Positions 7,838 through 25,428 of a DNA stretch of 64,000 nt are shown in pieces. The stretch lies in contig JAFQTD010000015.1 of assembly GCA_017409215.1 (NCBI GenBank), forward strand, positions 261 to 64,260, written 5' to 3'. The notes below the pieces were generated by a model, which did not search any database, was not told the DNA's origin, and was given only the letters and a program-made list of their open reading frames with translations. The DNA comes from Alphaproteobacteria bacterium. GTDB taxonomy: Bacteria; Pseudomonadota; Alphaproteobacteria; Rs-D84. Made by a program: the position numbers and the translations under genes. The number at the start of each line of letters is the position of its first letter. Within the stretch, counting starts at the first letter, position 1.

Positions 7838-7913
7838 GGCCCCATCGTCTAGAGGCCTAGGACACCGCCCTTTCAAGGCGAGAACACCGGTTCGAATCCG
7901 GTTGGGGCTGCCA
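7838..7913 (+). tRNA. tRNA-Glu (TTC)
   Basis: GGCCCCATCGTCTAGAGGCCTAGGACACCGCCCTTTCAAGGCG...GGTTCGAATCCGGTTGGGGCTGCCA; anticodon loop CTTTCAA. Confidence 0.95.
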
Positions 7914-8075
7914 AAATTACAACCGACCCTTGGGGTCGGTTTTAATTTTGCCTGTTCCCACCGAGACGAGAACCGCAGGTTCGGGGCGCCAGTTGGTGAA
8001 AACAAGTGTTAACGAAGTTTGAACCTTACGTAGCGAAAGGGGCCCATGGAGTGAAAACGGACATGGGAATCAGAC

Positions 8076-8201
8076 AATCCGGTTGGCCCTGCCAAAAATC
8101 AAAAACACCCGTTTGGGTGTTTTTTTGATTAGATTTCTAATAGTTCTGTGAGTTCGTAAGTTGATGGTTAAAAAATGCTACCGTTTCACACATTTACGAA
8201 C
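8076..8201 (+). repeat. cassette-array repeat R0 (tRNA-Glu 3'-end copy + terminator + right arm)
   Basis: AATCCGGTTGGCCCTGCCA (8076-8094) copies the tRNA-Glu 3' end with 2 mismatches. Followed by hairpin AACACCCGTTTGGGTGTT+T7, then TTCTAATAGTTCTGTGAGTTCGTAAG..CACATTTACGAAC. Confidence 0.8.
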
Positions 8202-8207
8202 TGTTTA

Positions 8208-8891
8208 TTATCTTATTTTACACCATTTGTCCAACAATATATTCAAATCATTCATATTGTTGCACACACCAAAAACACCATATTTTTTACATTCTGCTTC
8301 ATACGTTTTCGTATTATTACCCGTTGCACCAATAAATGCGATACAATCCATACCAGCAGCAGTTGCGGCCTTGAAATCATTAACACTGTCGCCAACGACT
8401 ATACAATTTTTTTGTGTATAACCTTTTGTGTTTGACGCTAATAAAAATAAATCTGGTGCAGGTTTGCCTTGTTTTACCATATCAACAGTAAAAAAATCTT
8501 GTTCGGATATATATTTTTTTATCCATTGAAATTGTGTCATTTTCCAAGCATGTTGTTCCTTTGTCGCACCAGTCGCAATACAATGTTCAAAATTATTATT
8601 AGCCATAACTTGTTCGACACCTGGTATAGGTTCCACAAGATTGGTACAAAATTCAAATTCCCGTTCATATATTTTTGCCATAAAATTATCATCAAGATTC
8701 AATCCGGGAATATAATTTTCCACTCTTTCCCGACAGGTTTTGTCCGAAACACCATAAAATAATTTTTGTTTTTCTGCTGGGTTTAATTCTATTTGTTTTT
8801 CAGATTTTAATATCTCATCCCATACCCGAACATGCAAATATTCGCTGTCTGCAATAACACCATCAAAATCCCAAATAAGTAATTTTTTCAT
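8208..8891 (-). CDS. HAD-superfamily hydrolase
   Basis: MKKLLIWDFDGVIADSE (DxDG motif I) and VGDSVNDFKAA (motif IV). Confidence 0.85.
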   Translation of the reverse strand: MKKLLIWDFDGVIADSEYLHVRVWDEILKSEKQIELNPAEKQKLFYGVSDKTCRERVENYIPGLNLDDNFMAKIYEREFEFCTNLVEPIPGVEQVMANNNFEHCIATGATKEQHAWKMTQFQWIKKYISEQDFFTVDMVKQGKPAPDLFLLASNTKGYTQKNCIVVGDSVNDFKAATAAGMDCIAFIGATGNNTKTYEAECKKYGVFGVCNNMNDLNILLDKWCKIR

Positions 8892-8916
8892 TTTTTACCT
8901 TTTTTGCACCTTGATA

Positions 8917-9141
8917 TCATTATAGTACAAATTGGCAAAAATCAAACTTTATTTAAAAACACCTTAATCTCTTTCCCGAACAACAACGAATCACGAATAA
9001 AATCAACTCGTAAATAGCACAGATGGCCCTGCAAAAAATCAAAAACACCCGTTTGGGTGTTTTTTTGATTAGATTTCTAATAGTTCTGTGAGTTCGTAAG
9101 CTGGGTATGAAAAACAGCTCCCTTTTTGCTGACTTGCGAAC
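8917..9141 (+). repeat. cassette-array repeat R1 (full)
   Basis: Left arm ..CTTTCCCGAACAACAACGAATCACGAATAAAAT.., core GATGGCCCTGCA (9022-9033). About 65 bp (9035-9100) appear identical to 8095-8160. Right arm GTTCGTAAGC..CTTGCGAAC. Confidence 0.8.
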
Positions 9142-9176
9142 TTTTTTGTGATATATTTAGATTGAAAGGTTAATAG

Positions 9177-9629
9177 ATGCAAATTATTGAATATTACAAA
9201 TCAAAAAATCAAGAACACTGGAAAAACGAAATAGGTAAAGGTGATTGGTCGGCTGCAAAACTTTTGTATTCTTGGTTAAATACCGATAAATTAAAACAAA
9301 TATGTGGAAAATCGACAAAGATTTTTCTACTTACAGATGGCGATAATTTGGTTTCTTTCGCAATCTTAGCCGAACAAGATGAAATCGATGCACCTGAATT
9401 ATCCCCATGGATTGGTTTTGCATATACTTTTCCAAAATATCGTGGTAATAACAATATCGGCAAATTGATAAATCGTATTTGCGATACATTAAAATCCAAT
9501 AAAATCGAAAAAGTATATATATCTACTGACCATATAGGTTTATACGAGAAATACGGTTTTGTATTCTGGAAAATTATGAACAACCGAGAAGGCAAACCAA
9601 CTAGAGTTTATATAAAAAATCTTAATTAA
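9177..9629 (+). CDS. GNAT family N-acetyltransferase
   Basis: 150 aa. FAYTFPKYRGNNNIGKLINRICD (acetyl-CoA-binding R/Q-x-x-G-x-G/A-like) and YEKYGF. Confidence 0.7.
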   Translation: MQIIEYYKSKNQEHWKNEIGKGDWSAAKLLYSWLNTDKLKQICGKSTKIFLLTDGDNLVSFAILAEQDEIDAPELSPWIGFAYTFPKYRGNNNIGKLINRICDTLKSNKIEKVYISTDHIGLYEKYGFVFWKIMNNREGKPTRVYIKNLN

Positions 9630-9639
9630 AGGTAATGAT

Positions 9640-10536
9640 ATGATTAGTCAAGTTATAGATGGAATAGAATTTAAATTAAAAGAATATCAGGATTTTTCTT
9701 GGTTAAATAATTATGGAACTGTGTTTAATGTTATAGATGAGACAGGTAGCGGATGTATATCTTTTGGTATAAAAAAGGACAATAAAAAATATTTCTTTAA
9801 GATTGCAGGTGCAAAAACAGTTAATGCTGAAATAAGCGAAGAAGAATCGATTAAATTATTAAAAGAAGCAGTAATAAAATACAAAGACATCAAAAATGAC
9901 AATTTGATCAAGTTGGTAGATGCTTTTGAATATAAAGATTTTTATGTCGTAATCTATGAATATGCCGAAGGAGAATGTTTATTTGATCATTGGAATTTTG
10001 ATAGATATGAAAAAACCAAAGAAATAACTCCTTTGATGAAATTCAAATCATTACCAGTAGAAAAAAGATTGAATGTTGTGGATAAGTTGTTTTCGTTTTT
10101 TGAATCATTTATTGACGCGGGATATGTTGCGGTAGATTTTTATGATAGTAGTATAATTTATGATTTTGATAATGATGAAGTCACTTTTTGTGATATAGAT
10201 TTATTTAGAAAAATGCCAACCGTAAATGATTTGGGAACAGGTTATTTTGGAACCAAAAGATTAAAAGCCCCCGAAGAAAACGAATTAGGTGCATCAATAG
10301 ACGAACAAACATCATTATTTACATTGGGTGCAATTATATTTGATATGTTTAGTAATGAATCAAATATAAAAGAACGGTATGCAAAGGGATGTTTTATTCC
10401 TAATAAAATAGATGAATTCGAACTAAATAATAGTGTTTATAATGTACTATTAAAAGCAACAGCATACAATAGAAATGATAGATATAAAACCATCAAAGAG
10501 TTCAAGGACGATTTTTATAAAAAAATTCATTTGTGA
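9640..10536 (+). CDS. protein-kinase-fold protein (Ser/Thr kinase-like)
   Basis: Gly-loop DETGSGCISFG, YFFKIAG (VAIK-like), hinge IYEYAEGE, catalytic-like VAVDFYDSSIIYD, FCDIDLF (DFG-like), KAPEE (APE), SLFTLGAIIFDMF. Confidence 0.7.
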   Translation: MISQVIDGIEFKLKEYQDFSWLNNYGTVFNVIDETGSGCISFGIKKDNKKYFFKIAGAKTVNAEISEEESIKLLKEAVIKYKDIKNDNLIKLVDAFEYKDFYVVIYEYAEGECLFDHWNFDRYEKTKEITPLMKFKSLPVEKRLNVVDKLFSFFESFIDAGYVAVDFYDSSIIYDFDNDEVTFCDIDLFRKMPTVNDLGTGYFGTKRLKAPEENELGASIDEQTSLFTLGAIIFDMFSNESNIKERYAKGCFIPNKIDEFELNNSVYNVLLKATAYNRNDRYKTIKEFKDDFYKKIHL

Positions 10537-10746
10537 TTCATTATATCACAAAATCTGCAAAAATTCTTTTATTTCTTTTCCGAAACATAACAAATCACGA
10601 ATAAAATTGGTTCGTGAATTGCACGAGTTGCCCTGCCAAATCTGATTTTCCGTCCATTTGGGCGGATTTTTTCTTTGTTTTCCAATAGTTCTGTGAGTTC
10701 GTAAGTTGTGTATCAAAAACCACCACCATTTTACCAATTTACGAAC
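10537..10746 (+). repeat. cassette-array repeat R2 (full)
   Basis: TTCATTATATCACAAAATCTGCAAAAATTC..TTTTCCGAAAC..AATCACGAATAAAATTGGTTCGTGAATTGCACGAGTTGCCCTGCCA (core 10627-10638). Followed by hairpin CCGTCCATTTGGGCGG+T-run, then GTTCGTAAGTTG..CAATTTACGAAC. Confidence 0.85.
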
Positions 10747-10823
10747 TTTTTTCGGGTGGTTGTATTGATAATTTTTGTATATTGATATATAATTTGCACA
10801 GATTCTATAATAGAGGCACAAAA

Positions 10824-11348
10824 ATGATTTATTACAATGTAAATGATATCGTTATCAGAGATATGGTCGAAACAGACCCAGAAATTATCACTCATGAAGA
10901 ACATTTGCAAGGCTGGACAGACCAAAAAGTTGAAAAATATACACGCCGATTAAAAGATGTTGCCGACGGAAAATGCGTATCATTGGTTGCAGAATACAAG
11001 GGTAATGTCGCTGGGTATTTCAATGTGTATCCAAATTCAATGGGTGGTTCTTTTGGTGGCAAAGGATTGCCTGAATTGGTTGATTTTGGGGTGCTTGCAA
11101 AATACAGAAGACATGGTATCGGTAATGCTTTAATGCAAGTGGCAGAAGATATAGCAAAAAGATATTCAGATACTGTTTATTTGGGCGTTGGTTTGAATCG
11201 AGATTACGGTTCCGCACAAAGATTGTATATCAAGCGAGGTTTTATTCCAGACGGAACAGGTTTATGGTGGAATGGAAAAAACCTTGACCCGTATGCCGAC
11301 TTGAAAAACGACGATGAAGCCGCAATCTATATGTCAAAGAAGTTATAA
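10824..11348 (+). CDS. GNAT family N-acetyltransferase
   Basis: Start at ATG 10824 (MIYYNVNDIV). VLAKYRRHGIGNALMQ motif A and YIKRGF. Confidence 0.8.
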   Translation: MIYYNVNDIVIRDMVETDPEIITHEEHLQGWTDQKVEKYTRRLKDVADGKCVSLVAEYKGNVAGYFNVYPNSMGGSFGGKGLPELVDFGVLAKYRRHGIGNALMQVAEDIAKRYSDTVYLGVGLNRDYGSAQRLYIKRGFIPDGTGLWWNGKNLDPYADLKNDDEAAIYMSKKL

Positions 11349-11355
11349 TGGACAT

Positions 11356-11430
11356 CCAAAAAATTCTTTAACATCTTTCCCAAACACAAACAATTCGCGC
11401 GTAAACTCTGCTCGTGAATTGCACAGTTGG
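11356..11430 (+). repeat. cassette-array repeat R3, left arm only (broken at the core)
   Basis: ..TTCTTTAACATCTTTCCCAAACACAAACAATTCGCGCGTAAACTCTGCTCGTGAATTGCACAGTTGG, then unrelated sequence. The arm matches the R4 left arm. Confidence 0.75.
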
Positions 11431-11433
11431 TGT

Positions 11434-11588
11434 TTTGATATTGCTTTTTTAGACGATGGGTCACTGTTGGCGATGATAAAGTTCGACCAGAGCATGAAGC
11501 ACTGGACGGCGAAGTCAGAACATGGTATGATACAACACATCCAGGTGAAGAATACGGATGCAGATGTCATGCGGAAAGTGTCGATTAA
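11434..11588 (+). pseudogene. C-terminal fragment of a phage Mu-F/SPP1-gp7-like domain
   Basis: The frame reads CFFRRWVTVGDDKVRPEHEALDGEVRTWYDTTHPGEEYGCRCHAESVD*. This matches the D-x-R/K-V/T-R-P-x-H..LDG...H/P..NCRC signature. No upstream start or N-terminal part. Confidence 0.55.
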
Positions 11589-12066
11589 TTTTTTTATCTT
11601 GTTAATGTGTGCAGCTTGTACGAAACAAGTTGAATATACTGGTGATTTTTCTGATGGTTTGCCAGCACCACAAAAAACAGAAATTTTCAATTTGTCGGAT
11701 GAGTACGGAATAAAACAAATAGACACTTTTTATATTGATGTTAATAATGACGGTGTAAAAGATACTATTAAGCGCGGTCGCTTTGTAACGGGCACCGCAC
11801 ATTCTTATACTTTTTATGATATATACCTTGATAATGGTGAAAAACTGGCACGATTAACAACCCAAGAAAGTGCCGATTGTATTCTGCGTGCTTATAAATT
11901 CCAAACTCAACCATTTTTAATAACAAGCGCGGCAAGAAATGTCGGTGCTGATTATACAGAACCCACAAAGGCAAAAATTGAAAAATTTGAAATCAAAGAT
12001 AACAAAATAGAACCTGTGTACAATAAAGAGCATAAACCGATTTGTGATGTCAGGCATTTATTGTAA
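11569..12066 (+). CDS. putative secreted protein/lipoprotein, unknown
   Basis: Start at MRKVSINFFILLMCAACTKQ. The 250-aa track ORF 11314-12066 reads through the repeat and is rejected. Confidence 0.5.
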   Translation: MRKVSINFFILLMCAACTKQVEYTGDFSDGLPAPQKTEIFNLSDEYGIKQIDTFYIDVNNDGVKDTIKRGRFVTGTAHSYTFYDIYLDNGEKLARLTTQESADCILRAYKFQTQPFLITSAARNVGADYTEPTKAKIEKFEIKDNKIEPVYNKEHKPICDVRHLL

Positions 12067-12082
12067 ACAAGTACATAAATCA

Positions 12083-12120
12083 GGTGGTGAAATTTGATAC
12101 CATTTCACACATTTACGAAC
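12083..12120 (+). repeat. cassette-array repeat R3, distal right-arm end only
   Basis: GGTGGTGAAATTTGATACCATTTCACACATTTACGAAC matches the end of the R0 right arm (..GCTACCGTTTCACACATTTACGAAC). Confidence 0.65.
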
Positions 12121-12185
12121 TTTTAAAAAGAAAAGGTTAGAAATCTAACCTTTTATGCAGTTCGTATTTGTTGTGGGTGTTTGAT

Positions 12186-12605
12186 TTATTTAAACAATGC
12201 TTTTAATTGTTTTTCAGTTTTTTCATCTATCTTTTTACTTTGTAAATGTTGATATGGTTTATCTACTTCAACTTCTTGCCAAAAACATACACTATTATTT
12301 AATATAAATTTAATTCTTACAAGACCATATTCATGAATTTTTAAAAATTCTAATTTATTATCTGCATTCGAATACGAAATTGAATGTAATAATGAGTCAT
12401 TATCATATACTGTTTTATTACCCAATTTTATATCTGTGCCGTTAGTAGTTATGATTGCATAATTTTTATATAATTTTATATCTGTTGTTGGTTTACCTTC
12501 CTCGGCACCATTACAGAAAAAGCCATTTTGAACAAATACAGGTTTATCTGAACAAGCAGTCAAACCAATCAAAATCGGCAAAATTAACAAAGATAATTTT
12601 TTCAT
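12186..12605 (-). CDS. lipoprotein, unknown
   Basis: MKKLSLLILPILIGLTAC lipobox; RBS AAGGAG. Confidence 0.65.
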   Translation of the reverse strand: MKKLSLLILPILIGLTACSDKPVFVQNGFFCNGAEEGKPTTDIKLYKNYAIITTNGTDIKLGNKTVYDNDSLLHSISYSNADNKLEFLKIHEYGLVRIKFILNNSVCFWQEVEVDKPYQHLQSKKIDEKTEKQLKALFK

Positions 12606-12626
12606 TTTTTACTCCTTCGTTATAGC

Positions 12627-12834
12627 ATCATTATATCACAAAATTTGCAAAAATGTTTTAATATTTTTCCCAAACACAAACAATTCGCGCGTAAACTCTG
12701 CTCGTGAATTGCGTGAGTTGCCCTGCCAGAATAACAACCGACCCTTGGGGTCGGTTTTTTCTTTGTTTTCTAATAGTTTCGCGAGTTCGTAAGGTGGGTG
12801 ATGAAAACCGCCACTGTTTTATGAATTTATGAAC
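12627..12834 (+). repeat. cassette-array repeat R4 (full)
   Basis: Core GTTGCCCTGCCA (12717-12728). The hairpin AACCGACCCTTGGGGTCGGTTTT (12736-12758) is identical to the one directly behind tRNA-Glu (7921-7943). Right arm GTTCGTAAGG..ATTTATGAAC. Confidence 0.85.
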
Positions 12835-12886
12835 TATTTTTTTCATTAATTTTATGCTATAATGTGTGTCGTACAAGGAGAAATAA

Positions 12887-13426
12887 ATGAAAAAAGTTTT
12901 ATTGGTCGCTTTATGTGCATTAGGTGTCGTTGGATGTGATTCAACCAAAACATATGATATTACAGAAAGCGTATTGTGCAAATTCGAAAACGATAAAATA
13001 CGTTGCCCTGAACATAATATTAAACGACCCGATAATCTTGTCACAGACATATACAGAGAAAATGCTAATCTTTATCTGCACGCGCATAAAGATGGTGTTA
13101 TTATTTGCGAATTAGACTTTGTAAACGCAACGGATTTTTGTCGCGATGAACAAGGCAATCCTATTAACGGAATAATTAAAAATTACGAAGCGGATTTAGG
13201 ATATTTGATACAAGAAAACATTTACAAAAACGGCAAAATGCTTAAATCTGTTAGTTATTATGAGAATGGAATTATTTCATCGGAAAGTACAGCAGATGGC
13301 GTATCGCGCGCCTACAATAAAGACGGAAAACTGGTATACATAACAGAAAAAACCGCTGATAAAATAATTAGAACAGATTATGACCAAAACGGTAATATTA
13401 CAAATACAAAGGTTTTATCAAAATAA
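12887..13426 (+). CDS. MORN-repeat (YwqK-like) lipoprotein
   Basis: Lipobox GVVGC. Repeated Y-x-N-G-x-x-x-x motifs (YKNGKMLKSVSYYENGIISSES..YNKDGKLVYI), as in MORN-variant/YwqK antitoxin-immunity family proteins. Confidence 0.55.
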   Translation: MKKVLLVALCALGVVGCDSTKTYDITESVLCKFENDKIRCPEHNIKRPDNLVTDIYRENANLYLHAHKDGVIICELDFVNATDFCRDEQGNPINGIIKNYEADLGYLIQENIYKNGKMLKSVSYYENGIISSESTADGVSRAYNKDGKLVYITEKTADKIIRTDYDQNGNITNTKVLSK

Positions 13427-13440
13427 TAACGCAAAAACAA

Positions 13441-13543
13441 CCTGACTTCTTTCCCGAACGATAACAATTCATAAAGAAAATCATTTCGTGAATTGCACGT
13501 ATTCTCCTGTCAGAAATCAAAACACCGCACGAAGCGGTGTTTT
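13441..13543 (+). repeat. cassette-array repeat R5 (left arm, degenerate core, terminator; no right arm)
   Basis: CTTCTTTCCCGAACGATAACAATTCATAAAGAAAATCATTTCGTGAATTGCACGTATTCTCCTGTCA, then the bidirectional hairpin AAAACACCGCACGAAGCGGTGTTTT. Confidence 0.7.
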
Positions 13544-13709
13544 ATTCTGTTATACATTCGTTTATTTCTGTATTATAACTAAAACCCCTATCAAGACAAT
13601 AGTCTTGTTTGTCATTACCTGACAACCCAGCAATACCAAGCAATACTATCGCCCCAATCAGGAACACTACAAACAAATACACTATCAACAGCACATAAAA
13701 TCTTTTCAT
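13542..13709 (-). CDS. small single-pass membrane protein
   Basis: Start at MKRFYVLLIVYLFVVFLIGAIVLLGIAGL, with a Cys-containing tail. Lies 16 nt downstream of the SAA-like gene. Confidence 0.4.
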   Translation of the reverse strand: MKRFYVLLIVYLFVVFLIGAIVLLGIAGLSGNDKQDYCLDRGFSYNTEINECITE

Positions 13710-13725
13710 ACCATGTATGATAACA

Positions 13726-14145
13726 TTATTTTGCCACTTGTCCAGTTTCGTCTTTGACCCAATATTTTTGCAATAATTCATGCGTTGGGATATTTGGATA
13801 TTTTTTTGCTTGTTCACGACCATATTTATTGGCATTTAAATCTTCTTGTATATCAAATGCCAAATCTATTGGATTTTGATAATGGTGTTTTAATGCGTCA
13901 TTCAATTCTCTGAAAGCACTGATAAACTCTGCTGTTTTTTCACCATATTTGCCGCGTTTTGTTGCGTTCGCATTGGCGCGCGCGTGCGCATACTTATCAA
14001 AGCCAATTAAATTTTTCTTACGCATATCTTGATAGCTGTTCCAAAAATCCATACCTCCCAACATAATTTGCTGTAACGGTGTATATTGCTCAGATTTCTT
14101 TTCTTGTAGTACTTCTATTATTTTTTGTTTATAATTTTTATACAT
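13726..14145 (-). CDS. serum amyloid A (SAA)-like protein
   Basis: DFWNSYQDMRKKNLIGFDKYAHARANANATKRGKYGEKTAEFISAFRE aligns by eye with vertebrate SAA [48 protein letters not shown] (recalled from memory). Confidence 0.75.
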   Translation of the reverse strand: MYKNYKQKIIEVLQEKKSEQYTPLQQIMLGGMDFWNSYQDMRKKNLIGFDKYAHARANANATKRGKYGEKTAEFISAFRELNDALKHHYQNPIDLAFDIQEDLNANKYGREQAKKYPNIPTHELLQKYWVKDETGQVAK

Positions 14146-14344
14146 GAAATATTCCTTATTGTTTATTACAATATGCCAAACACCAGTTCACATATTGTGA
14201 TTATTTTTTAACTATTCTAATTAAGAAGGTTTGTTTTTGAAGATTGTTTCCGTGGCAAAATGCAGTTAGTGCCTAACTACTTACAATGCTTAATTTAAAG
14301 TTGACAATATAAAAAAGAAAAAATCAAGTATTTTTTATCTCAGA

Positions 14345-14527
14345 TTCTAAAAAGAACTTAACATCTTTTCCGAACGATAACAAATCACGAATAAAATCTG
14401 TTCGTGAATTGCGCGAGTTGCCCTGCCAGAATAAACAAAACCGCATTTTTGCGGTTTTTGTTTGAAATACTTTCAGCGGTTCGTAAATCGGGTGTCAAAC
14501 CCCACCACACTTTCAATGATTTACGAA
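14345..14527 (+). repeat. cassette-array repeat R6 (full)
   Basis: ..AACATCTTTTCCGAACGATAACAAATCACGAATAAAATCTGTTCGTGAATTGCGCGAGTTGCCCTGCCA (core 14417-14428). Followed by hairpin AAAACCGCATTTTTGCGGTTTTT, then GTTCGTAAATC..GATTTACGAAT. Confidence 0.85.
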
Positions 14528-15073
14528 TTACTTTTCCAAAATTTTTTCTAAGATATATTCGTGATGCCATTCGCCATCTATGAATGCGGTATCGTGTAAA
14601 ATACCAACGATTTCATAGCCTTGTTTTAACAGATTGCCCAAAGAACGCGTGTTTTTATGGCGAATGTTGGATTCTAACTTGTGTACATTGTTTTCAGTTG
14701 CCCATTTACCAACAATCTGCTTAAACTTAGTCCCCAGTCCCATTGATGTATATTTTTCCAATATTGTCGTTCCTGTGACCGCAACACGTCCCGACCACGG
14801 ATGGTCTGGCATTTTCTTGGTAATGTTTGCCGTACCTATGACCTGGTCGCCATCAAACGCAGCGACAAATAACCCATTTTCATTTGTCCAATCTTTTACG
14901 GCCCGTTCCCTGGGTGGCAATGGACGTTCGGGATACTGCCATGTCCATTTTGCACTGGGGCCTTTTCTGAACTCTTTCATATACCGCATAACGGCATCAT
15001 AATCATCGGCACGCAATGGACGGATAGTCACAACCCGACCATTTTTTAATTTGAACTTTATTGCACGTTTCAT
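14528..15073 (-). CDS. GNAT family N-acetyltransferase
   Basis: 181 aa. ILEKYTSMGLGTKFKQ (motif A) and LKQGYEIVG. Confidence 0.75.
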   Translation of the reverse strand: MKRAIKFKLKNGRVVTIRPLRADDYDAVMRYMKEFRKGPSAKWTWQYPERPLPPRERAVKDWTNENGLFVAAFDGDQVIGTANITKKMPDHPWSGRVAVTGTTILEKYTSMGLGTKFKQIVGKWATENNVHKLESNIRHKNTRSLGNLLKQGYEIVGILHDTAFIDGEWHHEYILEKILEK

Positions 15074-15173
15074 TTTGATTTCCTTTCTTTATTCAAGGAT
15101 AATTATACTACAAATTTGTATAAATTTCCATTGATAGATGCCTGTGCTGGGGGGGACGGTTGTGCTGGTCGGG

Positions 15174-15260: not shown

Positions 15261-15514
15261 TTAAAGGATTTGTTGCCGGACTTGTGCCTGGGAAGCATGG
15301 TGAGTGGCCGGGTTCCGAATATTCATGGGGAAATTCGCGCATCTGGCTGGAACCATCAAAAGAAACAAATACATACGGCCGTGATGATTTTTCAATTCAT
15401 GGCGGGTGGTTTCCAGGTTCGGCGGGCTGTATTGATTTAACATCAAATATGGATAATTTTGTTGCGTTATTTGATTATATAGGGAATGATTTAATCATAA
15501 AGGTGGAATATTAA
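15261..15514 (+). pseudogene. orphan C-terminal fragment of an L,D-transpeptidase-fold (Tlde1/DUF2778/YkuD-like) toxin domain
   Basis: ..GRDDFSIHGGWFPGSAGCIDLTSNMDNF contains the H-x(n)-S/G-x-GC(I/V) catalytic signature. There is no ATG or N-terminal third, and the open frame runs back into the ABC-F remnant. Confidence 0.45.
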
Positions 15515-15529
15515 CAATTAAGGTCTGGC

Positions 15530-15871
15530 ATGGAACAAAACAAGTATTCTTTGATGTATTATTCGGCTGTATTGTTGTCTGGGCTGTTTTATTTCTTTTT
15601 GGACGACTTGGCTTGTTTTGGTCGGATTGCGAAACACGAAGCCATATGGTGGAATATGTGCATACATCTAGATGGTCATAAAGCTGATGTTTGTATGGCA
15701 CGTTATGACTTGTTATGTATTTACATAATTTTGGGTCTGTTAATGTGGTTGGGGTATAAACTTGTCCCTATTTATAAAAAGAAAATCTTTTTTATTCCGC
15801 TGTTGGGAGGATTGGCATGTTTAATATGTAATTTTCTGTATTATTTGATTTTAGCTGTGTTATATTTCTAG
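15530..15871 (+). CDS. small multi-pass membrane protein (candidate immunity protein)
   Basis: 113 aa, 3-4 hydrophobic helices, starts 15 nt after the toxin-like fragment. Confidence 0.45.
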   Translation: MEQNKYSLMYYSAVLLSGLFYFFLDDLACFGRIAKHEAIWWNMCIHLDGHKADVCMARYDLLCIYIILGLLMWLGYKLVPIYKKKIFFIPLLGGLACLICNFLYYLILAVLYF

Positions 15872-15962: not shown

Positions 15963-16241
15963 TTGTCGATGGTACTTGTATTTTTAAATGACCTTAATCA
16001 GATTTTATATAATGGAAAATGGGAAGGTCTGTTGAGTAGAATATTTCCATCCAACATACTTATATTTATAAACATTGTACTTATCGCTACCCTGCTACTT
16101 TTATCGGGATTTTATTTACGCAAAATTTTATGTGAGACCCGCCACAAAGTACGAGCCATATTACTTTATATTATGTTTGGGGTATTAGGTTTCTTTTCTA
16201 CTATGTTGATCTTTATATTGTGTATACATATAATGCTGTAA
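15963..16241 (+). CDS. small membrane protein
   Basis: 92 aa (TTG start; alternative ATG at 15969), 2-3 hydrophobic helices. Confidence 0.35.
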   Translation: MSMVLVFLNDLNQILYNGKWEGLLSRIFPSNILIFINIVLIATLLLLSGFYLRKILCETRHKVRAILLYIMFGVLGFFSTMLIFILCIHIML

Positions 16242-18401: not shown

Positions 18402-21400
18402 TTAATACGATTGTAACAACAATTTATACTCTTTATCAATCACGTCAATAACTCCCCTGGCCTCGTCATCAGGATACTTCGACAAGTCATTCAACATTCT
18501 ATTATATTTTGCTGTAATTACATCATCTGTTGCCCCCGAATGCAATCCCCACTTCACCAAAACTTCTGACCGAGTTTGTGCATTGAAATCAATATTATAA
18601 TTTGCCCCTTGAACAAAATCAGCAAACCATTTCTTTCTTGCTCTTGACGACAAACCACTAGAAATTCCCGCATAATTATCAGAAAAAGCAAAAGCAGACT
18701 GCTCTGTTGGTCTAAGATAATAACCCGGACCATATGAAGAACTAATCCCGCCAAATAGTTCCGCGTTAACCAATTGTTCACCGATTGCCCCCTCATTCGG
18801 TGTAACGAAATCATTATAATGTATACCTTCATGCCCCGATACACCCAGCATCTGCCTACCACCTGCATCAATATATCTACTATCTGGATTTATATAAATG
18901 TAATGCTGTCCGTTAATAAGCTCATGTTTTATGACTCTCCCTGCTGATGTCATACCTCTTTTTATTACAACCTGCGGTGCCGGAATATTATTTTCTTTTG
19001 CAACAGCATTAAAAACACTTTGTAAAGAGCTTCTTAAATCGTCTTCATTAATCCAATTATCCAAAGCTTCTTGAACTGCTTTATCTTGACTAAGAACCCT
19101 ATCAAATATTTCTGTTTGCTTTACGGCATTTACCCTCATTCTGGGCAAGGGGGCGACCTCTGCAATATCTACATGATATTGCGCAGTAACCTCATTCTTT
19201 TTTGCAACAAGGGCCTTATAATCTTCCGACTCCCAGTATTTTTTCAACAAATCCTCTTCCGATAAACCGGGATTTTTTTCCCTAAAGCTATTAAAGAGAC
19301 GATTATAATCATCATCAAGTTCTTCTCTTATCGGCTTATATCGTGCATTAACATTTGAAACATCCAAATTAACAGTCGAATAGGAACGAGTAAAAGACGG
19401 ACTCATAACCGTTTCTTCCGCAAACATTTCTCTATACAAGTTTATTTTATCACCTGACCAACGACTAAAGTCACCAGAACCAGGTTTTTGTAGTTCACTT
19501 AAATATTGCCCCTTAAAAAGTCTATAATCATTTATATCAGACCCAGATTCTACAAACAAATCATTATAACGCATCATAGCAGAACGTTTGGCATCTCCAA
19601 GTTCTGAATTTTTAATCCATGTTTTTGCTTGTTCTTCTATAACAGCCAAATTATTATCAAACGAAGTCATAAAATCGTCAATAGATTGATTTTGTGGCGC
19701 ATAATCATCATACAGCTCAAGCCAACGTCTGCCCTCAGGTGTTTTATCCAATTCCTCTATACGAGCCAATTCTGCATTAGCAAGCTTTTCATTACGCAAT
19801 GCTATTCTTTCTGCACGCGTTAATCCAGATTCATCAACCACCCCAAGAACATCATCTGTCCCACCTGCTGCAAAGGCTGTAACATCATCTACCTTTTTCC
19901 TTAATACCCTTGTTGCCTCGGGTAAATCATCTGCCAATTTTGTATTTTTAAACAACGCGGTTCCACCAGATTTTACAAGTCCCACAGACTGCATTGCGAT
20001 GCCAACTGCGCGCCAAATTTCTGCTGCGTCATATCCGCCGTCATCAAAACCAGACAGACCCTGTTCTGCAATAATTCTGTAAAATTTGGATTCTGTCGGT
20101 ATCATTTCCGCCAATCGTGCCATTACTTTATCAATCATCAACGCTTCTGTTTTGGTCAACTCGTTTTCAATACGCGCCAAATGCACCAAATGTTCCTTTA
20201 TCAAACTTTCTGCACAAACTGCATCTTGACATTTATTACTTTCTACAAAAAAATCATCCGCCATACCATTAATTTTATGTTGCGCAATAATTTCCATTAC
20301 ACCACCAGCAGTCTCAACAACAACAATCGCTGGACTGTCACCGGTTCCAAAAGACACAACGGCACTTAGCAATGTTCCACCAACCATCAATGCAATATTT
20401 AGAGATTTTTCATGACGTGTAGCTGCCGCCCCATCCGGCAAAGTACAAATTTCATTTTCTGGATCCCATTCCACCAATCTGCATTCATGACAGCTTTCTA
20501 TATTTGCAGCACGCAATTTTAAGCACTCATCTTCATCCAGATGCATACAACGCTTGCCCGTATATTCACCACCTGCAATTATACAATCCATCGCCTGTTT
20601 CCCTGCACGTCTAAACTTACGTTTCCATTCAGACAAATCAGGAAAAACAAAATCAACAGGCTGACTATTTACATAACAGGTTAACACCTCGTCACGTTCA
20701 CCCTTATACATTATATGTCCTGTTGAATAATCGCAACTAAATGATTCTAAAACTATGTTCTTTTTGCCCATATATTCATTGAGATATTTTTTTACAAATG
20801 CTTCTATGCTCATATCCATTTGTGCCGTCACACCTAAAAACACATAATTATCAATACCGTATGCGGTGCGCAATTCGTTTGTGGTGCGAACTATTCCCGA
20901 CACTGTGCATAAATTATCGGAAACATCATCTGGATGTGGTAAATTCTGTTGTTCTAACAGCGGCCTAGTCTGAATACCAAGACCGACCTTCGCATTAACC
21001 CAATCTGTATAATTTTGTTTTGCCTTGGCATTTTTTACTATCTTGGATTCATAGCCCATTTTTTGCAATGTATTATTTATTTCGCTACATTTCTTATAAT
21101 CAGACACATTATATGCCGCAAATCCATCATCCCCGTCTTTGGTAATCGCTGAAATATCAGATATTCCTGTCAGTGTTTGCACATCATGCAATTTGCCAAC
21201 AGCATTTAACACACTATGCAAAATAGAATTATCTTCTGTCGTGGTCAGATTACCAAAATTAAATTCAAATTTATGATAATCATCCACACTGGAACACTTC
21301 AGGTATCTTTTACCACGTATATCTGATGAACAAACCGCTTTTATCCTGTGCTTTTTCAACAGATATTCCTTGGCCAAGGCGATTCCTTCGGGAATACGAA

Positions 21401-21755
21401 CCGTAGCGGAATTAAAAAGCTGCACACATTCACCAGATTCAACTGATACACCCTTGTCACAAACAGAATAAAATCTGGTCAATAAAATATCAATCACGCG
21501 CCCACACATTTCAGAATTCCAGCCCGCAGCATTACATGCCGCCCGCAATCCTGACTGATTAATCATACCTGTTTCGGTTAAATGCTGATTAAAGGCCTGT
21601 GCAAAGGCAGACATTTCTTGTTCCCTGCCCGCAAAAGCATCTTTTAACACATACTCTAAAACATCTGGATAGATAAAAACTTCTTTCTCAGAATCCGCAA
21701 ATGCACTGGTTGCACAAAACAAAGACAAAAATATCGCAAATATTTTCTTTATCAT
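18402..21755 (-). CDS. large secreted Cys-rich protein with C-terminal HEXXH (zincin-like) motif
   Basis: Signal MIKKIFAIFLSLFCATSAFA. Many Cys in the first ~450 aa. GVSGHEGIHYNDF near the C-terminus. The start ATG overlaps the upstream stop (ATGA). Confidence 0.6.
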   Translation of the reverse strand: MIKKIFAIFLSLFCATSAFADSEKEVFIYPDVLEYVLKDAFAGREQEMSAFAQAFNQHLTETGMINQSGLRAACNAAGWNSEMCGRVIDILLTRFYSVCDKGVSVESGECVQLFNSATVRIPEGIALAKEYLLKKHRIKAVCSSDIRGKRYLKCSSVDDYHKFEFNFGNLTTTEDNSILHSVLNAVGKLHDVQTLTGISDISAITKDGDDGFAAYNVSDYKKCSEINNTLQKMGYESKIVKNAKAKQNYTDWVNAKVGLGIQTRPLLEQQNLPHPDDVSDNLCTVSGIVRTTNELRTAYGIDNYVFLGVTAQMDMSIEAFVKKYLNEYMGKKNIVLESFSCDYSTGHIMYKGERDEVLTCYVNSQPVDFVFPDLSEWKRKFRRAGKQAMDCIIAGGEYTGKRCMHLDEDECLKLRAANIESCHECRLVEWDPENEICTLPDGAAATRHEKSLNIALMVGGTLLSAVVSFGTGDSPAIVVVETAGGVMEIIAQHKINGMADDFFVESNKCQDAVCAESLIKEHLVHLARIENELTKTEALMIDKVMARLAEMIPTESKFYRIIAEQGLSGFDDGGYDAAEIWRAVGIAMQSVGLVKSGGTALFKNTKLADDLPEATRVLRKKVDDVTAFAAGGTDDVLGVVDESGLTRAERIALRNEKLANAELARIEELDKTPEGRRWLELYDDYAPQNQSIDDFMTSFDNNLAVIEEQAKTWIKNSELGDAKRSAMMRYNDLFVESGSDINDYRLFKGQYLSELQKPGSGDFSRWSGDKINLYREMFAEETVMSPSFTRSYSTVNLDVSNVNARYKPIREELDDDYNRLFNSFREKNPGLSEEDLLKKYWESEDYKALVAKKNEVTAQYHVDIAEVAPLPRMRVNAVKQTEIFDRVLSQDKAVQEALDNWINEDDLRSSLQSVFNAVAKENNIPAPQVVIKRGMTSAGRVIKHELINGQHYIYINPDSRYIDAGGRQMLGVSGHEGIHYNDFVTPNEGAIGEQLVNAELFGGISSSYGPGYYLRPTEQSAFAFSDNYAGISSGLSSRARKKWFADFVQGANYNIDFNAQTRSEVLVKWGLHSGATDDVITAKYNRMLNDLSKYPDDEARGVIDVIDKEYKLLLQSY

Positions 21756-22696
21756 TTCAACACCCCCGTACATTTTGCCGCGACTTCGGCAACCTTTTTT
21801 ATCGCGGATATTTGCGTCGCGTTAAATACAGTCGCAACACCACCAGCCACCGCAGATGCCCCAGCCAACACATTCGATGCAGTATTTAAATTTTTTTCTT
21901 TATCACTACGTGTCCCATCTGTATTTTTTTGCGACAAAATATTTTTACTGTTTGCCATCGCACTGGTCGTGGTACCCGCCAACCCAGCCACAGCACCAAC
22001 CCCAGATGAAATCATTGCACCTTTGCCACGTGTATTAATCTTGGATAAATCAACATATTCAAATTCACTGCAGACCGATTCAATAGATTGCGCTTCGGTC
22101 ACGTCTTCGCCATTTATACGCGCCTGCATAATTGCAGTACGCAGGTTCGAAACACTTTCCTTGCACGAATTTATCTGCGCGTCTAAATCGCCATCAACCT
22201 TATTTTTTGCCGCAATAATTGTACCTGCAACATTTGCAACTGTACCTGTTGCCATTAACCCAGTGCGCCAATTGCCCAGCTTCTTGGATTTATCTTGTAA
22301 TTGCGACAGTTCAGAAGACGAAGATGCGCCACCCACCGCAGAAGATATCGATTTAACAATCTCTTCTTTATCTTCATTTGATAAATCTCGTTCAGCGTTA
22401 TTATTACGCTGTTGTTCTGCCGTACGCAGTTTTGTGATTAATTCATCTATTTCTTTATCGATTTGTTCTTTTTTTATGCCAACGGCAACCGCGCCAACAC
22501 CAGTTGCAGCACCAACACCAGTTATCGCGGTGTTTATACCGGCCATTTTCTTTAAATCAGTCAATTCTTCATCAATGCCAACACAGGCTGTATATGTCGC
22601 ACGCAACGCATCATTCAGTGTCAGCACACTCGCAGCCGCGGGGAAAGAGGGTAAAAACGCAGTAATTACAACAAGCAAGCTTATTTTAGTCTTCAT
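21752..22696 (-). CDS. secreted protein with four Gly/Ala-rich glycine-zipper-like segments and coiled-coil spacers
   Basis: Start at MKTKISLLVVITAFLPSFPAAASV. Segments GVGAATGVGAVAVGI, GLMATGTVANVAGTIIAA, SSGVGAVAGLAGTTTSA and LAGASAVAGGVATV. Confidence 0.55.
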   Translation of the reverse strand: MKTKISLLVVITAFLPSFPAAASVLTLNDALRATYTACVGIDEELTDLKKMAGINTAITGVGAATGVGAVAVGIKKEQIDKEIDELITKLRTAEQQRNNNAERDLSNEDKEEIVKSISSAVGGASSSSELSQLQDKSKKLGNWRTGLMATGTVANVAGTIIAAKNKVDGDLDAQINSCKESVSNLRTAIMQARINGEDVTEAQSIESVCSEFEYVDLSKINTRGKGAMISSGVGAVAGLAGTTTSAMANSKNILSQKNTDGTRSDKEKNLNTASNVLAGASAVAGGVATVFNATQISAIKKVAEVAAKCTGVLK

Positions 22697-22957
22697 AACA
22701 TTCCTCAACAACAATGTTTGTATTATAGCATATATACCATACAAAAAAAAGAAATAACCGCCCAAATGGGGGTGTTTGATTTTTGTGGCGGAATATGATT
22801 TTGTTACGAACAACCACATACAAATTCCGACTTTTACAGGGAATTTACAGGGATTTTTTGATATAATATTTATATCATCTGGGAACTATCTGGGAAAAAT
22901 ATTGACTTTCTGGGAATTATTTGGTAAAATCTGGTAAAAATATTAAAAGGATTTAGT

Positions 22958-24016
22958 ATGCCTAATAATAGAGATATTGTTATAACCCCAGAAATGCTGA
23001 ACAGCATTGCCGAGATTGATGCATTTAATGGTGCGTGGACCGGCGGGGCAGTAAAACTGTCCGCGGACGATCTGCGTGTTATGCGTCGTGTTGCAACAAT
23101 TGAATCTGTCGGATCATCTAATCGTATAGAAGGCAATCGTATGACAGACACTGAAATTGAGGCATTGTTTGCCAATATCAATCGTCAGTCATTTGCCACC
23201 AGAGACGAGCAGGAAGTTGCCGGATATTCAGATGTAATCAATACCATATTTGAAAACTATGCGTCTATACCGCTTAGTGAGAATTATATTAAGCAGTTGC
23301 ATAAAATATTATTGAATTACTCTGACAAAGACACCCGCCATCGTGGCGAATATAAAAAAGACAGCAACCGTGTTGCTGCATTTGACGCAAACGGTAATGA
23401 AATCGGTTCTATATTCGAAACCGCTACACCATTTGATACGCCACGCCTGATGAGTGAAACAGTAAAATGGACCAATGATGTGTTGGCCGACAAATTCTTT
23501 CACCCTATTATTGCCATTGGTGTGTTTGTGATACATTTTCTGTCCATCCATCCATTTACCGATGGTAATGGGCGTTTGTCGCGCGCATTGACTGTTATGC
23601 TGATGCTGAAAAGTGGATATACATATATGCCATATGCATCTATGGAATCTATTATAGAAGCGACCAAGGACGCATACTATCGTGCATTACGTGGCACACA
23701 AAAAACCATCTGGGGCGACAAGATCAACTATGAACCATGGCTGACTTTCTTTGTTCGTGCATTGGTTGCACAAAAACGCCAGCTGGAAGACAAAATCGCA
23801 AAAGTACGTGGCGCAAGTGCGGCAAAACTGTCTGCAACACAGAATCAGATTTTGGAACTGTTTCATAAAACACCAGAATTGACCATGCCACAGATTGTAT
23901 CTGCGATGGATAAAAATCCAGAAACCATTCGCAAGGCGGTACACGCATTGGTTAAACGGGGACACATATCAAAACAAGGTACAACCCGTGGTGTGTTTTA
24001 CACTTTGCATAAATAA
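22958..24016 (+). CDS. Fic family protein with C-terminal winged-helix
   Basis: HPFTDGNGRLSRAL (Fic motif HPFxxGNGR). C-terminal ..ETIRKAVHALVKRGHISKQG is wHTH-like. Confidence 0.9.
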   Translation: MPNNRDIVITPEMLNSIAEIDAFNGAWTGGAVKLSADDLRVMRRVATIESVGSSNRIEGNRMTDTEIEALFANINRQSFATRDEQEVAGYSDVINTIFENYASIPLSENYIKQLHKILLNYSDKDTRHRGEYKKDSNRVAAFDANGNEIGSIFETATPFDTPRLMSETVKWTNDVLADKFFHPIIAIGVFVIHFLSIHPFTDGNGRLSRALTVMLMLKSGYTYMPYASMESIIEATKDAYYRALRGTQKTIWGDKINYEPWLTFFVRALVAQKRQLEDKIAKVRGASAAKLSATQNQILELFHKTPELTMPQIVSAMDKNPETIRKAVHALVKRGHISKQGTTRGVFYTLHK

Positions 24017-24064: not shown

Positions 24065-25419
24065 ACCTATTTTGGAAAGATTAATCGCATTTGATATAAT
24101 AAAGCGGTATTCATGAAAGGCGCACAGGTGTTATAGGTTGCTTCTCAAATCATCTTTGATATAATAAACATTTGAAGAACAACTGGCCGAGGTGCGTTAT
24201 AGGTTGCTTCTCAAATCGTCTTTGATATAATGCGAATGATATTGCGTGTGTCCAATGCGGAGTTATAGGTTGCTTCTCAAATCGTCTTTGATATAATGCA
24301 CGTGTATAACACATATCGTTATAATCAGTTATAGGTTGCTTCTCAAATCGTCTTTGATATAATCGTTGAACAATGCACAGGATTAAAGGACAAGTTATAG
24401 GTTGCTTCTCAAATCGTCTTTGATATAATTAATATCATAACGGCGCCGCGCGCAAGCAAGTTATAGGTTGCTTCTCAAATCGTCTTTGATATAATTTTAA
24501 ATAGGTTTTAAATAGGTTTTAACAGGTTATAGGTTGCTTCTCAAATCGTCTTTGATATAATGCCCTGCTCCACGGCATATCGAAAGCCGGCGTTATAGGT
24601 TGCTTCTCAAATCGTCTTTGATATAATGAACAAATTCGGCGCAAAAAAAATAACCATGTTATAGGTTGCTTCTCAAATCGTCTTTGATATAATAATGGCT
24701 AATACTTGGTATGTACTGAAATAGTTATAGGTTGCTTCTCAAATCGTCTTTGATATAATATATAGACTGCTTTTAATCCGTATGCAGTAGTTATAGGTTG
24801 CTTCTCAAATCGTCTTTGATATAATGGATAAAACAAAAAAAACACAAAAAAATAAGTTATAGGTTGCTTCTCAAATCGTCTTTGATATAATTACAAGTGC
24901 AACCGGGAGACACTTGGAAAAGTTATAGGTTGCTTCTCAAATCGTCTTTGATATAATTACTGGGGTCAATTAATCAAACTGCTTTAAGTTATAGGTTGCT
25001 TCTCAAATCGTCTTTGATATAATTGCCCTGCTCTACGCCATTCGTAAGGCGATGTTATAGGTTGCTTCTCAAATCGTCTTTGATATAATCATTCAAAGAA
25101 GATGCACTTAAATATATAAGTTATAGGTTGCTTCTCAAATCGTCTTTGATATAATGAACTGGAAGATGTATTCGGTAAAAACGCGGTTATAGGTTGCTTC
25201 TCAAATCGTCTTTGATATAATTCGAACGTATCGAACATTTGAATGCAGACGGTTATAGGTTGCTTCTCAAATCGTCTTTGATATAATCAGATGATGCTTT
25301 GGCAACATTAAGCATATGTTATAGGTTGCTTCTCAAATCGTCTTTGATATAATCGTTTTGCAGGATTTCTTCGGTTTCACTGCGTTATAGGTTGCTTCTC
25401 AAATCGTCTTTGATATAAT
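24065..25419 (+). CRISPR. CRISPR array: 20 x 36-bp repeat GTTATAGGTTGCTTCTCAAATCGTCTTTGATATAAT, 19 x 30-bp spacers, plus one degenerate terminal repeat
   Basis: Repeats start at 24130+66k (k=0..19). 19 are identical and the first carries G>A at 24152. A degenerate copy at 24065-24100 keeps only ..AATCG.(A/C)TTTGATATAAT. Confidence 0.98.
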
Positions 25420-25428
25420 AGGCACATG

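Follow-up and report, generated by a model that had tools for sequence, protein, structure and literature searches.

Animal serum amyloid A (SAA) is a secreted, amyloid-forming protein that has a signal peptide and binds HDL or retinol. The presence of an SAA-like gene in an array of small accessory genes from an alphaproteobacterium, within a 64,000-nt stretch of DNA that was analyzed as a whole (referred to below as the window), raises the question of where such a gene came from and what its product does in a bacterium. An earlier note on this DNA had recognized a resemblance to human SAA1 and proposed transfer from a eukaryote, together with a possible role in host interaction or lipid binding.

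The AlaS protein encoded in the window is 88-90% identical to AlaS of Candidatus Enterousia sp. metagenome-assembled genomes (MAGs), and the runs holding the sequence derive from gut, sheep, and bovine metagenomes. Candidatus Enterousia is an uncultured alphaproteobacterial genus of the order Rs-D84, found in farm-animal guts and with genomes mostly smaller than 1 Mb, whose members are thought to be obligate symbionts or parasites of other cells (PMC12306168).

A Bacterial Relative of Serum Amyloid A

The SAA-like gene and the segment upstream of it are located as follows.

13726..14145, minus strand: predicted SAA-like toxin gene, encoding a 139-aa stand-alone prok-SAA/Lipocone protein
14146..14348, minus strand: cassette-specific leader upstream of the SAA-like gene, read from the sequence

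The 139-aa open reading frame (ORF) coincides exactly with 13726..14145 on the minus strand and contains the peptide quoted in the earlier note. It starts with ATG, and its ribosome-binding site AAGGAA is located 7 nt upstream (14153-14158), within the leader. The leader also contains a weak sigma-70-like match at 14241..14214 (9 of 12 positions), although a promoter scan of this region showed a 9/12 match to be no better than that expected by chance or from shuffled sequence. In two related loci (L001 and L008), the leader is kept along with the SAA cassette. RNA runs were searched as well and yielded no usable transcript evidence for the locus.

Homology to SAA is well supported by profile and sequence searches. 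Residues 24-115 of the protein align with positions 4-90 of the 102-position Pfam SAA profile (PF00277) at an E-value of 1e-20, with a score of 74.5 bits that lies well above the curated gathering cutoff of 30.8 bits. When the protein was compared with PDB sequences using phmmer, the significant matches were SAA proteins only, including 7zh7 (1.4e-13) and human SAA1 (4ip8, 2.9e-11). Since the HMMER bias term for the SAA matches was 0.2-0.4, the similarity is not a low-complexity effect, a concern raised in the earlier note, and the claimed relationship to SAA1 is thus borne out.

Apart from the SAA domain, Pfam detected no RHS, MuF, PAAR, LXG, or peptidoglycan (PG)-binding module in the 139-aa protein, and the approximately 23 residues preceding the domain are variable among relatives. 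The N-terminus (MYKNYKQKIIEVLQEKKSEQ) was read by inspection as charged and without a hydrophobic core, so that the search for a signal peptide or secretion signal suggested in the earlier note gave a negative result. No match was obtained for the protein or its partner (described below) in NCBIfam, PHROGs, or PADLOC. A scan of a genome collection with patterns derived from an alignment of close relatives likewise returned no match, because the patterns were too specific.

The predicted structure leads to the same conclusion. Modeling with AlphaFold2 on the basis of nine close relatives gave a helical bundle (pLDDT 81.8, pTM 0.74) with helices at residues 23-43, 49-63, 68-86, and 92-115, followed by a short fifth helix at residues 121-124. 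The model displays the four-helix bundle and packed C-terminal segment that characterize solved SAA structures, and its sole significant Foldseek matches in the PDB were mouse SAA3 and human SAA1 (probability 1.00), with TM-scores of 0.62-0.67 by target length and 30-36% identity. The four-helix bundle anticipated in the earlier note was thereby recovered. The supposed outline match of the tail to that of SAA1 did not hold up, as the canonical YRPxGLPxKY is absent from the C-terminal tail and YWVKDETGQVAK is found in its place. A "broken-hairpin" export domain, known in some prok-SAA proteins, was considered for this region and is not claimed, the tail merely replacing the canonical one at a similar length. 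Taken together, the 139-aa protein is a true bacterial relative of animal SAA.

Distribution and Conserved Residues of the SAA-Like Family

To place the protein within its family, a profile built from its close relatives was used in an exhaustive search of 1.84 billion representative proteins. The resulting SAA-like family comprises 752 clusters (50% identity) at E ≤ 1e-3, with 129 clusters at E ≤ 1e-10. Among the best 150 of the 752 clusters, the Pfam SAA model matches 148 representatives, and just a handful of sequences look animal-derived. Bacteria and phages commonly encode SAA-like domains, and the earlier statement that SAA-family proteins are rare outside animals has to be abandoned.

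The domain architecture of these proteins is informative. PG_binding_1 was detected in 12, Phage_Mu_F in 5, and YD-shell/RHS in 3-4 of the best 150 of the 752 clusters. In a set of 159 SAA-domain sequences, the domain lies within 15 aa of the C-terminus in 130 cases and is preceded by an N-terminal extension of more than 60 aa in 89; RHS-core motifs are present in 23 of the 159 and the MuF HPNCKC motif in 15. A variable toxic tip mounted on conserved carrier modules (RHS, MuF, and PG-binding) corresponds to a polymorphic-toxin layout.

Across the 150 representatives, the columns conserved in at least 90% of sequences correspond to D50, Y52, H54, A57, N58, G65, G68, E80, D102, N106, G109, and R110, all of which are intact in the 139-aa protein, including the stretch A105-N-K-Y-G-R110. 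These residues can be related to the "prok-SAA" family, which was defined within the SAA-Wnt clade of the Lipocone superfamily (Burroughs, Nicastro & Aravind, eLife 2025, PMC12419801). In that study, an sNxxGR motif in helix 4, together with a His in helix 2, a Glu in helix 3, and an Asp in helix 4, is treated as the active site; the equivalent positions in the window protein are A105-N106-K-Y-G109-R110, H54, E80, and D102, respectively. The predicted catalytic residues are therefore retained. Active Lipocone members are predicted to remove or swap phosphate-linked lipid head groups, as TelC does on lipid II, and many Lipocone families are housekeeping lipid enzymes (PMC12419801). The SAA-like gene thus belongs to a family already described in 2025 and, for bacterial SAA, in an earlier source from 2023 (Zamocky & Ferianc 2023, as cited in PMC12419801).

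A Small Membrane Protein Encoded Downstream

The SAA-like gene is followed on the same strand by a second small gene.

13542..13709, minus strand: predicted immunity gene, encoding a 55-aa protein with a membrane anchor at its N-terminus (MKRFYVLLIVYLFVVFLIGAIVLLGIAGL) and with DYCLDRGFSYNTEINEC in its short C-terminal region

A tiny membrane protein at this position had been pointed out in the earlier note and is indeed present, but the extent of its ORF needed correction, with the mechanical ORF spanning 13542..13835 and the actual gene 13542..13709. The start of the gene is located 16 nt past the stop codon of the SAA-like gene. Its product (MKRFYVLLIVYLFVVFLIGAIVLLGIAGLSGNDKQDYCLDRGFSYNTEINECITE) begins with basic residues, continues with a single long hydrophobic stretch, and ends in a short tail whose two cysteines form part of the motif CLDxG..Y..C. 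Pfam contains no family for the 55-aa protein or for the partner family to which it belongs.

The association between the two genes extends well beyond the window. In L001, a partner of the 55-aa type follows a toxin that is 86% identical to that of the window; in L091, it is also present beside a toxin that is only 66% identical, and in L008 it is likewise located 3' of the SAA-like gene. On viral contigs, genes encoding MuF-SAA or PG-binding-SAA proteins are followed in 5 of 6 loci by a small membrane protein with the motif C-L-D-x-G-G-x-W...C. A wider survey covered 80 metagenome loci, 73 of which had enough downstream sequence to be judged. A membrane-anchored Cys-motif protein (C-L-D-x-G-x-x-W/Y...C) is encoded directly downstream of the SAA domain in 49 of these 73 loci, and its strict form (typically IDSCLDxGGRWNY..C) is found in 40 of the 73, compared with a background of 14 proteins combining a transmembrane (TM) segment and Cys motif among 1657 other ORFs. 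Many of the Cys-motif partners adjoin RHS-core or MuF-fused toxins. Free-standing SAA and partner pairs also recur in unrelated metagenome loci, among whose neighbors no common gene suggestive of an adaptor was found.

Both genes of the pair are under purifying selection, with dN/dS values of 0.15-0.18 for the SAA-like gene (0.15 against the L001 homolog) and 0.09-0.13 for the partner. The immunity proteins that accompany Lipocone toxins are reported to function outside the cytoplasm and to be either membrane proteins or lipoproteins; among them is a Cys-stabilized domain linked to prok-SAA (PMC12419801). Because the same type of partner follows SAA-domain genes in 49 of the 73 judged loci, the 55-aa protein is likely, from its sequence features and position, to be the cognate immunity protein in a minimal, two-cysteine form. 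A phage lysis module, consisting of an enzyme and a holin, was also considered for the pair and rejected, given that no prophage is present here and that the periplasmic Cys motif is shared with the partners of RHS toxins.

In a separate locus (L006, positions 1-603), a P0006 homolog with about 61-66% identity was found, and the gene located 10 nt upstream of it weakly matches phrog_5880 (1.9e-08). This neighbor may point to a free-standing copy carried by a phage.

A Predicted Toxin-Immunity Module and Competing Explanations

The pair at 13542-14145 probably represents a prok-SAA toxin-immunity module. The 139-aa protein is a free-standing version of the C-terminal toxic tip that is usually carried by RHS, MuF, or peptidoglycan-binding toxins. 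By analogy with TelC, it would most likely act at the periplasmic side of the inner membrane of a target cell, where it would cut the phosphate-linked head group from lipid II or another undecaprenyl-linked carrier. The 55-aa protein would be anchored in the inner membrane of the producer, with its disulfide-capable C-terminal motif facing the periplasm, and would neutralize toxin arriving from kin. The two genes travel together as a single cassette between repeats of approximately 190 nt. The particular activity proposed, that is, cleavage of lipid-carrier head groups at the periplasmic face, is extrapolated to prok-SAA from TelC and from residue conservation, and its chance of being correct may be put at even or slightly below.

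The main weakness of this reading is delivery, as the 139-aa protein has neither a signal peptide nor a carrier domain and no secretion-system gene was found in the part of the window ORFs that was scanned. Certain relatives provide further counter-evidence. In a subgroup with 60% identity (P0007 and P0008; loci L004, L005, and L095-L097), which is distinguished within the SAA-like clade by an extra MTWNEAL insertion, the small Cys-motif partner is absent. The SAA-like gene of this subgroup lies between a merR-like gene and a gene for a membrane metallophosphoesterase, and in L004 this group of genes is found downstream of the 3' end of gyrA. In addition, L008 (10001-10430), L009, and L010, which represent three independent samples, contain an SAA-like gene with one additional A in a run of six (GAAAAAAC changed to GAAAAAAAC), whereby the protein is cut to 82 aa while the partner is left intact. 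The frameshift could reflect decay or homopolymer switching, and a frameshifted toxin beside an intact partner fits a locus that needs immunity alone.

The latter point leads to the alternative that survives best, although it is itself unlikely, namely that the locus is kept for immunity only, the toxin being an orphan, undelivered tip and the 55-aa protein a guard against SAA-tip toxins released by neighbors. Besides the three frameshifted samples, such an explanation would account for the missing trafficking domain and signal peptide of the 139-aa protein and for the lack of secretion-system genes in the part of the window ORFs that was scanned, and it agrees with the presence in the array of other immunity-like genes (MORN_2/YwqK-like lipoprotein) and of a truncated Tlde1-like fragment. 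It is difficult to reconcile, however, with a toxin ORF in the window that is intact, has its own ribosome-binding site, and keeps every conserved polar residue, or with the recurrence of free-standing SAA and partner pairs in unrelated metagenome loci. Moreover, the dN/dS of the toxin remains at 0.15-0.18 across 14-34% protein divergence, which indicates that the toxin gene itself is selected.

Somewhat less probable again is an endogenous envelope- or lipid-modifying enzyme, in which a cytoplasmic SAA-like protein would act on the lipid head groups of its own cell and the small membrane protein would serve as an anchor or regulator. The housekeeping role of many Lipocone families (PMC12419801), the predicted cytoplasmic location of the 139-aa protein, and the fixed chromosomal context of the P0007/P0008 subgroup beside a membrane metallophosphoesterase are all compatible with this possibility. 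Yet the cassette is variably present and mobile within an accessory array of low G+C content, the conserved motif of the partner is predicted to face the periplasm rather than the cytoplasm, and unmistakable RHS and MuF polymorphic toxins are found with a partner of the same type.

The origin proposed in the earlier note fares worst. Identity to human SAA1 in a trimmed domain alignment is 38% for the window protein and 45-49% for several bacterial proteins that are fused to RHS or MuF parts, and in a rough neighbor-joining (NJ) tree of 151 domains, which is indicative only, the animal sequences group in a clade of five that is separate from the clade of the window protein. Since these values fit a recent capture from an animal host poorly and the bacterial and phage family is large, a recent animal-to-bacterium transfer was rejected. 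That a captured animal-host SAA gene encodes a secreted lipid- or retinol-binding or host-mimicking factor is accordingly very improbable, for although the organism inhabits ruminant guts and the fold matches that of retinol-binding SAA3, the protein has no signal peptide, its identity to human SAA1 is below that of many RHS and MuF toxins, the animal clade is small and separate, the bacterial and phage family is diverse, catalytic-type residues and an immunity-type partner are present, and published inference runs from bacteria to animals, with prok-SAA seen as the bacterial source of animal SAA (PMC12419801). Likewise, a host-interaction or lipid-binding role is less likely than a toxin role, considering the retained catalytic residues, the partner type found in 49 of 73 loci, and the missing signal peptide.

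A tRNA-Anchored Array of Repeats and Cassettes

The predicted toxin-immunity module is one of several cassettes in an array whose main features are listed below.

7838..7913, plus strand: tRNA-Glu (UUC), which serves as the fixed anchor of the array
7990..15100, no strand assigned: variable cassette array directly downstream of the tRNA, with four full and three partial repeats
14349..14535, plus strand: full array repeat bounding the SAA cassette upstream, with a terminator hairpin at 14437-14458
13433..13545, plus strand: partial array repeat bounding the SAA cassette downstream, comprising the first block and a terminator hairpin, with the second block missing

The flanking repeats mentioned in the earlier note thus correspond to 13433-13545 and 14349-14535. 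All repeats lie on the plus strand, the full copies at 8955-9146, 10559-10751, 12649-12839, and 14349-14535 and the partial copies at about 8076-8206, 11359-11430, and 13433-13545, and the repeat is confined to 7990-14535 of the window. A full copy of approximately 190 nt comprises a conserved block ending in a TCGTGAATTGC..TTGCCCTGCCA box, a terminator hairpin with a stem that differs in sequence between copies, and an inverted repeat (AGTTCGTAAG...TTTACGAACT, which reads GGTTCGTAA...TTTACGAAT in the copy at 14349..14535). In the partial repeat downstream of the SAA cassette, the terminator hairpin (13519-13543) overlaps the stop codon of the 55-aa gene. The 3' end of tRNA-Glu and its terminator (CTGCCA..ACAACCGACCCTTGGGGTCGGTTTT) are 88% identical to the part of the repeat at 12723-12765. 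Rfam searches at gathering and permissive thresholds detected tRNAs only, with no family for the repeats or for the segment at 7914-8095. This segment of approximately 180 nt lies between tRNA-Glu and the first repeat and has a tRNA-like acceptor end (GGGGCC...GGCCCTGCCA). In L001 (2745-3125) it is located several cassettes away from the tRNA, indicating that cassettes can flank it on either side.

The cassette genes are small, diverse, and found in both orientations, and encode a HAD hydrolase, three GNATs, a kinase-like protein, lipoproteins, a MORN_2 protein, and the SAA pair. The G+C content of the array is 32-34%, as opposed to 40-45% elsewhere in the window. The kinase-like gene (9640-10536, plus strand) shows modest matches to the PD-T4-6 (2e-10) and MADS6 (8e-10) anti-phage kinase models, and on account of this similarity the array may hold defense genes in addition to toxin and immunity genes.

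Comparison among relatives reveals that the cassettes are gained, lost, and reshuffled. The same tRNA-Glu and a META-domain gene anchor the arrays of L001, L002, and L008, in which the cassettes and their order differ. Counted from the tRNA, the SAA cassette is second in L008, third in L001, and much farther along in the window, with different neighbors on both sides in each of the three; some relatives have no SAA cassette at all. Contigs from other runs skip from repeat to repeat, one of these skips (13461 to 14533) deleting exactly the SAA cassette, and in one run the read depth falls to zero over 13542-14303 but not over the cassettes on either side. As assembler contigs break at repeats, individual joints should be read with caution.

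Integron cassette arrays consist of cassettes arranged beside an attI site, with attC sites and an IntI integrase, the cassettes being co-oriented and mostly promoterless. The window array resembles them in that small, diverse accessory genes of lower G+C content are placed between recurring sites, with content and order variable among relatives. However, no IntI-type integrase was found nearby in the part of the window ORFs that was scanned; a tRNA gene, rather than an attI site, anchors the array; the repeats are approximately 190 nt long, with other boxes and an element resembling a tRNA 3' end (the comparison with attC was made by inspection); and the genes lie in both orientations, each cassette having its own terminator. 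An integron was therefore rejected. No Phage_integrase match was found in the part of the window ORFs that was scanned.

A doubtful but conceivable interpretation is that the array represents an undescribed integron-like capture platform in genome-reduced Rs-D84 bacteria, with a recombinase encoded elsewhere and cassettes inserted, excised, and reshuffled at the repeats. In such a platform, each site of approximately 190 nt would unite two inverted TTCGTRA-type boxes with a duplicate of the 3' end of the tRNA and its terminator, and the mobile units would be cassettes of one or two genes, the SAA toxin-immunity pair among them. Alternatively, the cassettes move only by homologous recombination between the repeats.

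Other Genes in the Window

Several further genes lie beyond the repeats. A 76-aa ORF at 15284-15514 (plus strand) contains an L,D-transpeptidase-type motif (HGG..SAGC) and resembles the remnant of a Tlde1-like effector; it is followed by two small ORFs with multiple TM segments (15530-15871 and 15963-16241). A full 337-aa gene with PG_binding_1, YkuD, and Tlde1_dom domains is present in the related array of L001 (5007-6020, minus strand). Just beyond the array, a 1123-aa protein with an N-terminal signal-like segment (18402-21773, minus strand) and an Ala/Gly/Ser-rich protein of 355 aa (21752-22819, minus strand), whose gene lies upstream of the former and overlaps it at the end, have no Pfam match. 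It is possible that these two are surface or interaction proteins of a partner-dependent bacterium.

A type II CRISPR-Cas locus is found at 24116-25420, 25854-26768 (minus strand), and 26820-29744 (minus strand). In its array, a 36-nt repeat (GTTATAGGTTGCTTCTCAAATCGTCTTTGATATAAT) occurs about 20 times, separated by 30-nt spacers, and beside it are encoded Cas1 and a Cas9-like protein of 974 aa that has HNH and RuvC domains. A Fic-domain protein with a strong match to the PADLOC SoFic defense model (2.7e-49) is encoded at 22958-24016 (plus strand), immediately adjoining the CRISPR array. Farther away, at 52633-54420 (plus strand), lies a gene for a trimeric autotransporter adhesin with a YadA anchor and internal 75-nt tandem coding repeats (53848-54093).

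Comparison with Known Systems

The window pair has in common with the prok-SAA family (PMC12419801) a helical bundle of the SAA type that includes a short fifth helix, the sNxxGR motif, the His, Glu, and Asp positions, and an associated immunity-type protein that contains cysteines and is anchored in the membrane. Fusions of relatives to RHS, MuF, and peptidoglycan-binding modules were recovered independently in the present analysis. In contrast, the window protein is free-standing (139 aa), without trafficking, processing, or signal sequences, and has a clade-specific tail (PTHELLQKYWVKDETGQVAK) instead of YRPxGLPxKY; its partner of 55 aa has two cysteines rather than the four conserved cysteines reported previously (PMC12419801), and the pair forms a cassette in a tRNA-Glu-anchored repeat array of an Rs-D84 alphaproteobacterium. 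With animal SAA (SAA1 and SAA3; PDB 4ip8 and 6pxz), it shares the fold, 30-38% identity over about 90-100 residues, and the DKYxHARxN and ANxxGR blocks, whereas it differs in having no signal peptide, another tail, an immunity-type partner, and a position outside the animal clade.

TelC of Streptococcus intermedius, a lipid II phosphatase toxin of the LXG/T7SS type paired with the membrane-tethered immunity protein TipC, is the one characterized Lipocone toxin according to the summary given in PMC12419801. Superfamily membership is common to both pairs, as is the proposed logic, in which an extracytoplasmic toxin acting on a lipid carrier would be opposed by an immunity protein on the outer face of the membrane. 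TelC itself belongs to the prok-TelC family and has an LXG delivery domain, and TipC is larger and lipoprotein-like. Furthermore, activity has been demonstrated for TelC, whereas that of prok-SAA is a prediction.

MuF polymorphic toxins of temperate phages were reportedly described by Jamet et al. in 2017. MuF-fused SAA tips with the same partner type occur on the viral contigs L098, L100, and L101, but the window gene has no MuF part and lies outside any prophage.

Implications

The current picture of the SAA family is unchanged by this locus, in which the SAA homology is real and already explained; the least explained feature is instead the repeat array anchored at tRNA-Glu. The biochemical function of SAA is still debated, and the view that SAA-type domains are lipid head-group enzymes is a proposal. 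With a candidate toxin of 139 aa, a partner of 55 aa, and no large carrier domain, the pair is about the smallest natural system in which this proposal could be tested, and it is suited to expression, mutagenesis, and lipid II cleavage assays. As for the organism, a presumably cell-dependent bacterium with a genome of under about 1 Mb maintains conflict and accessory genes in a variable array.
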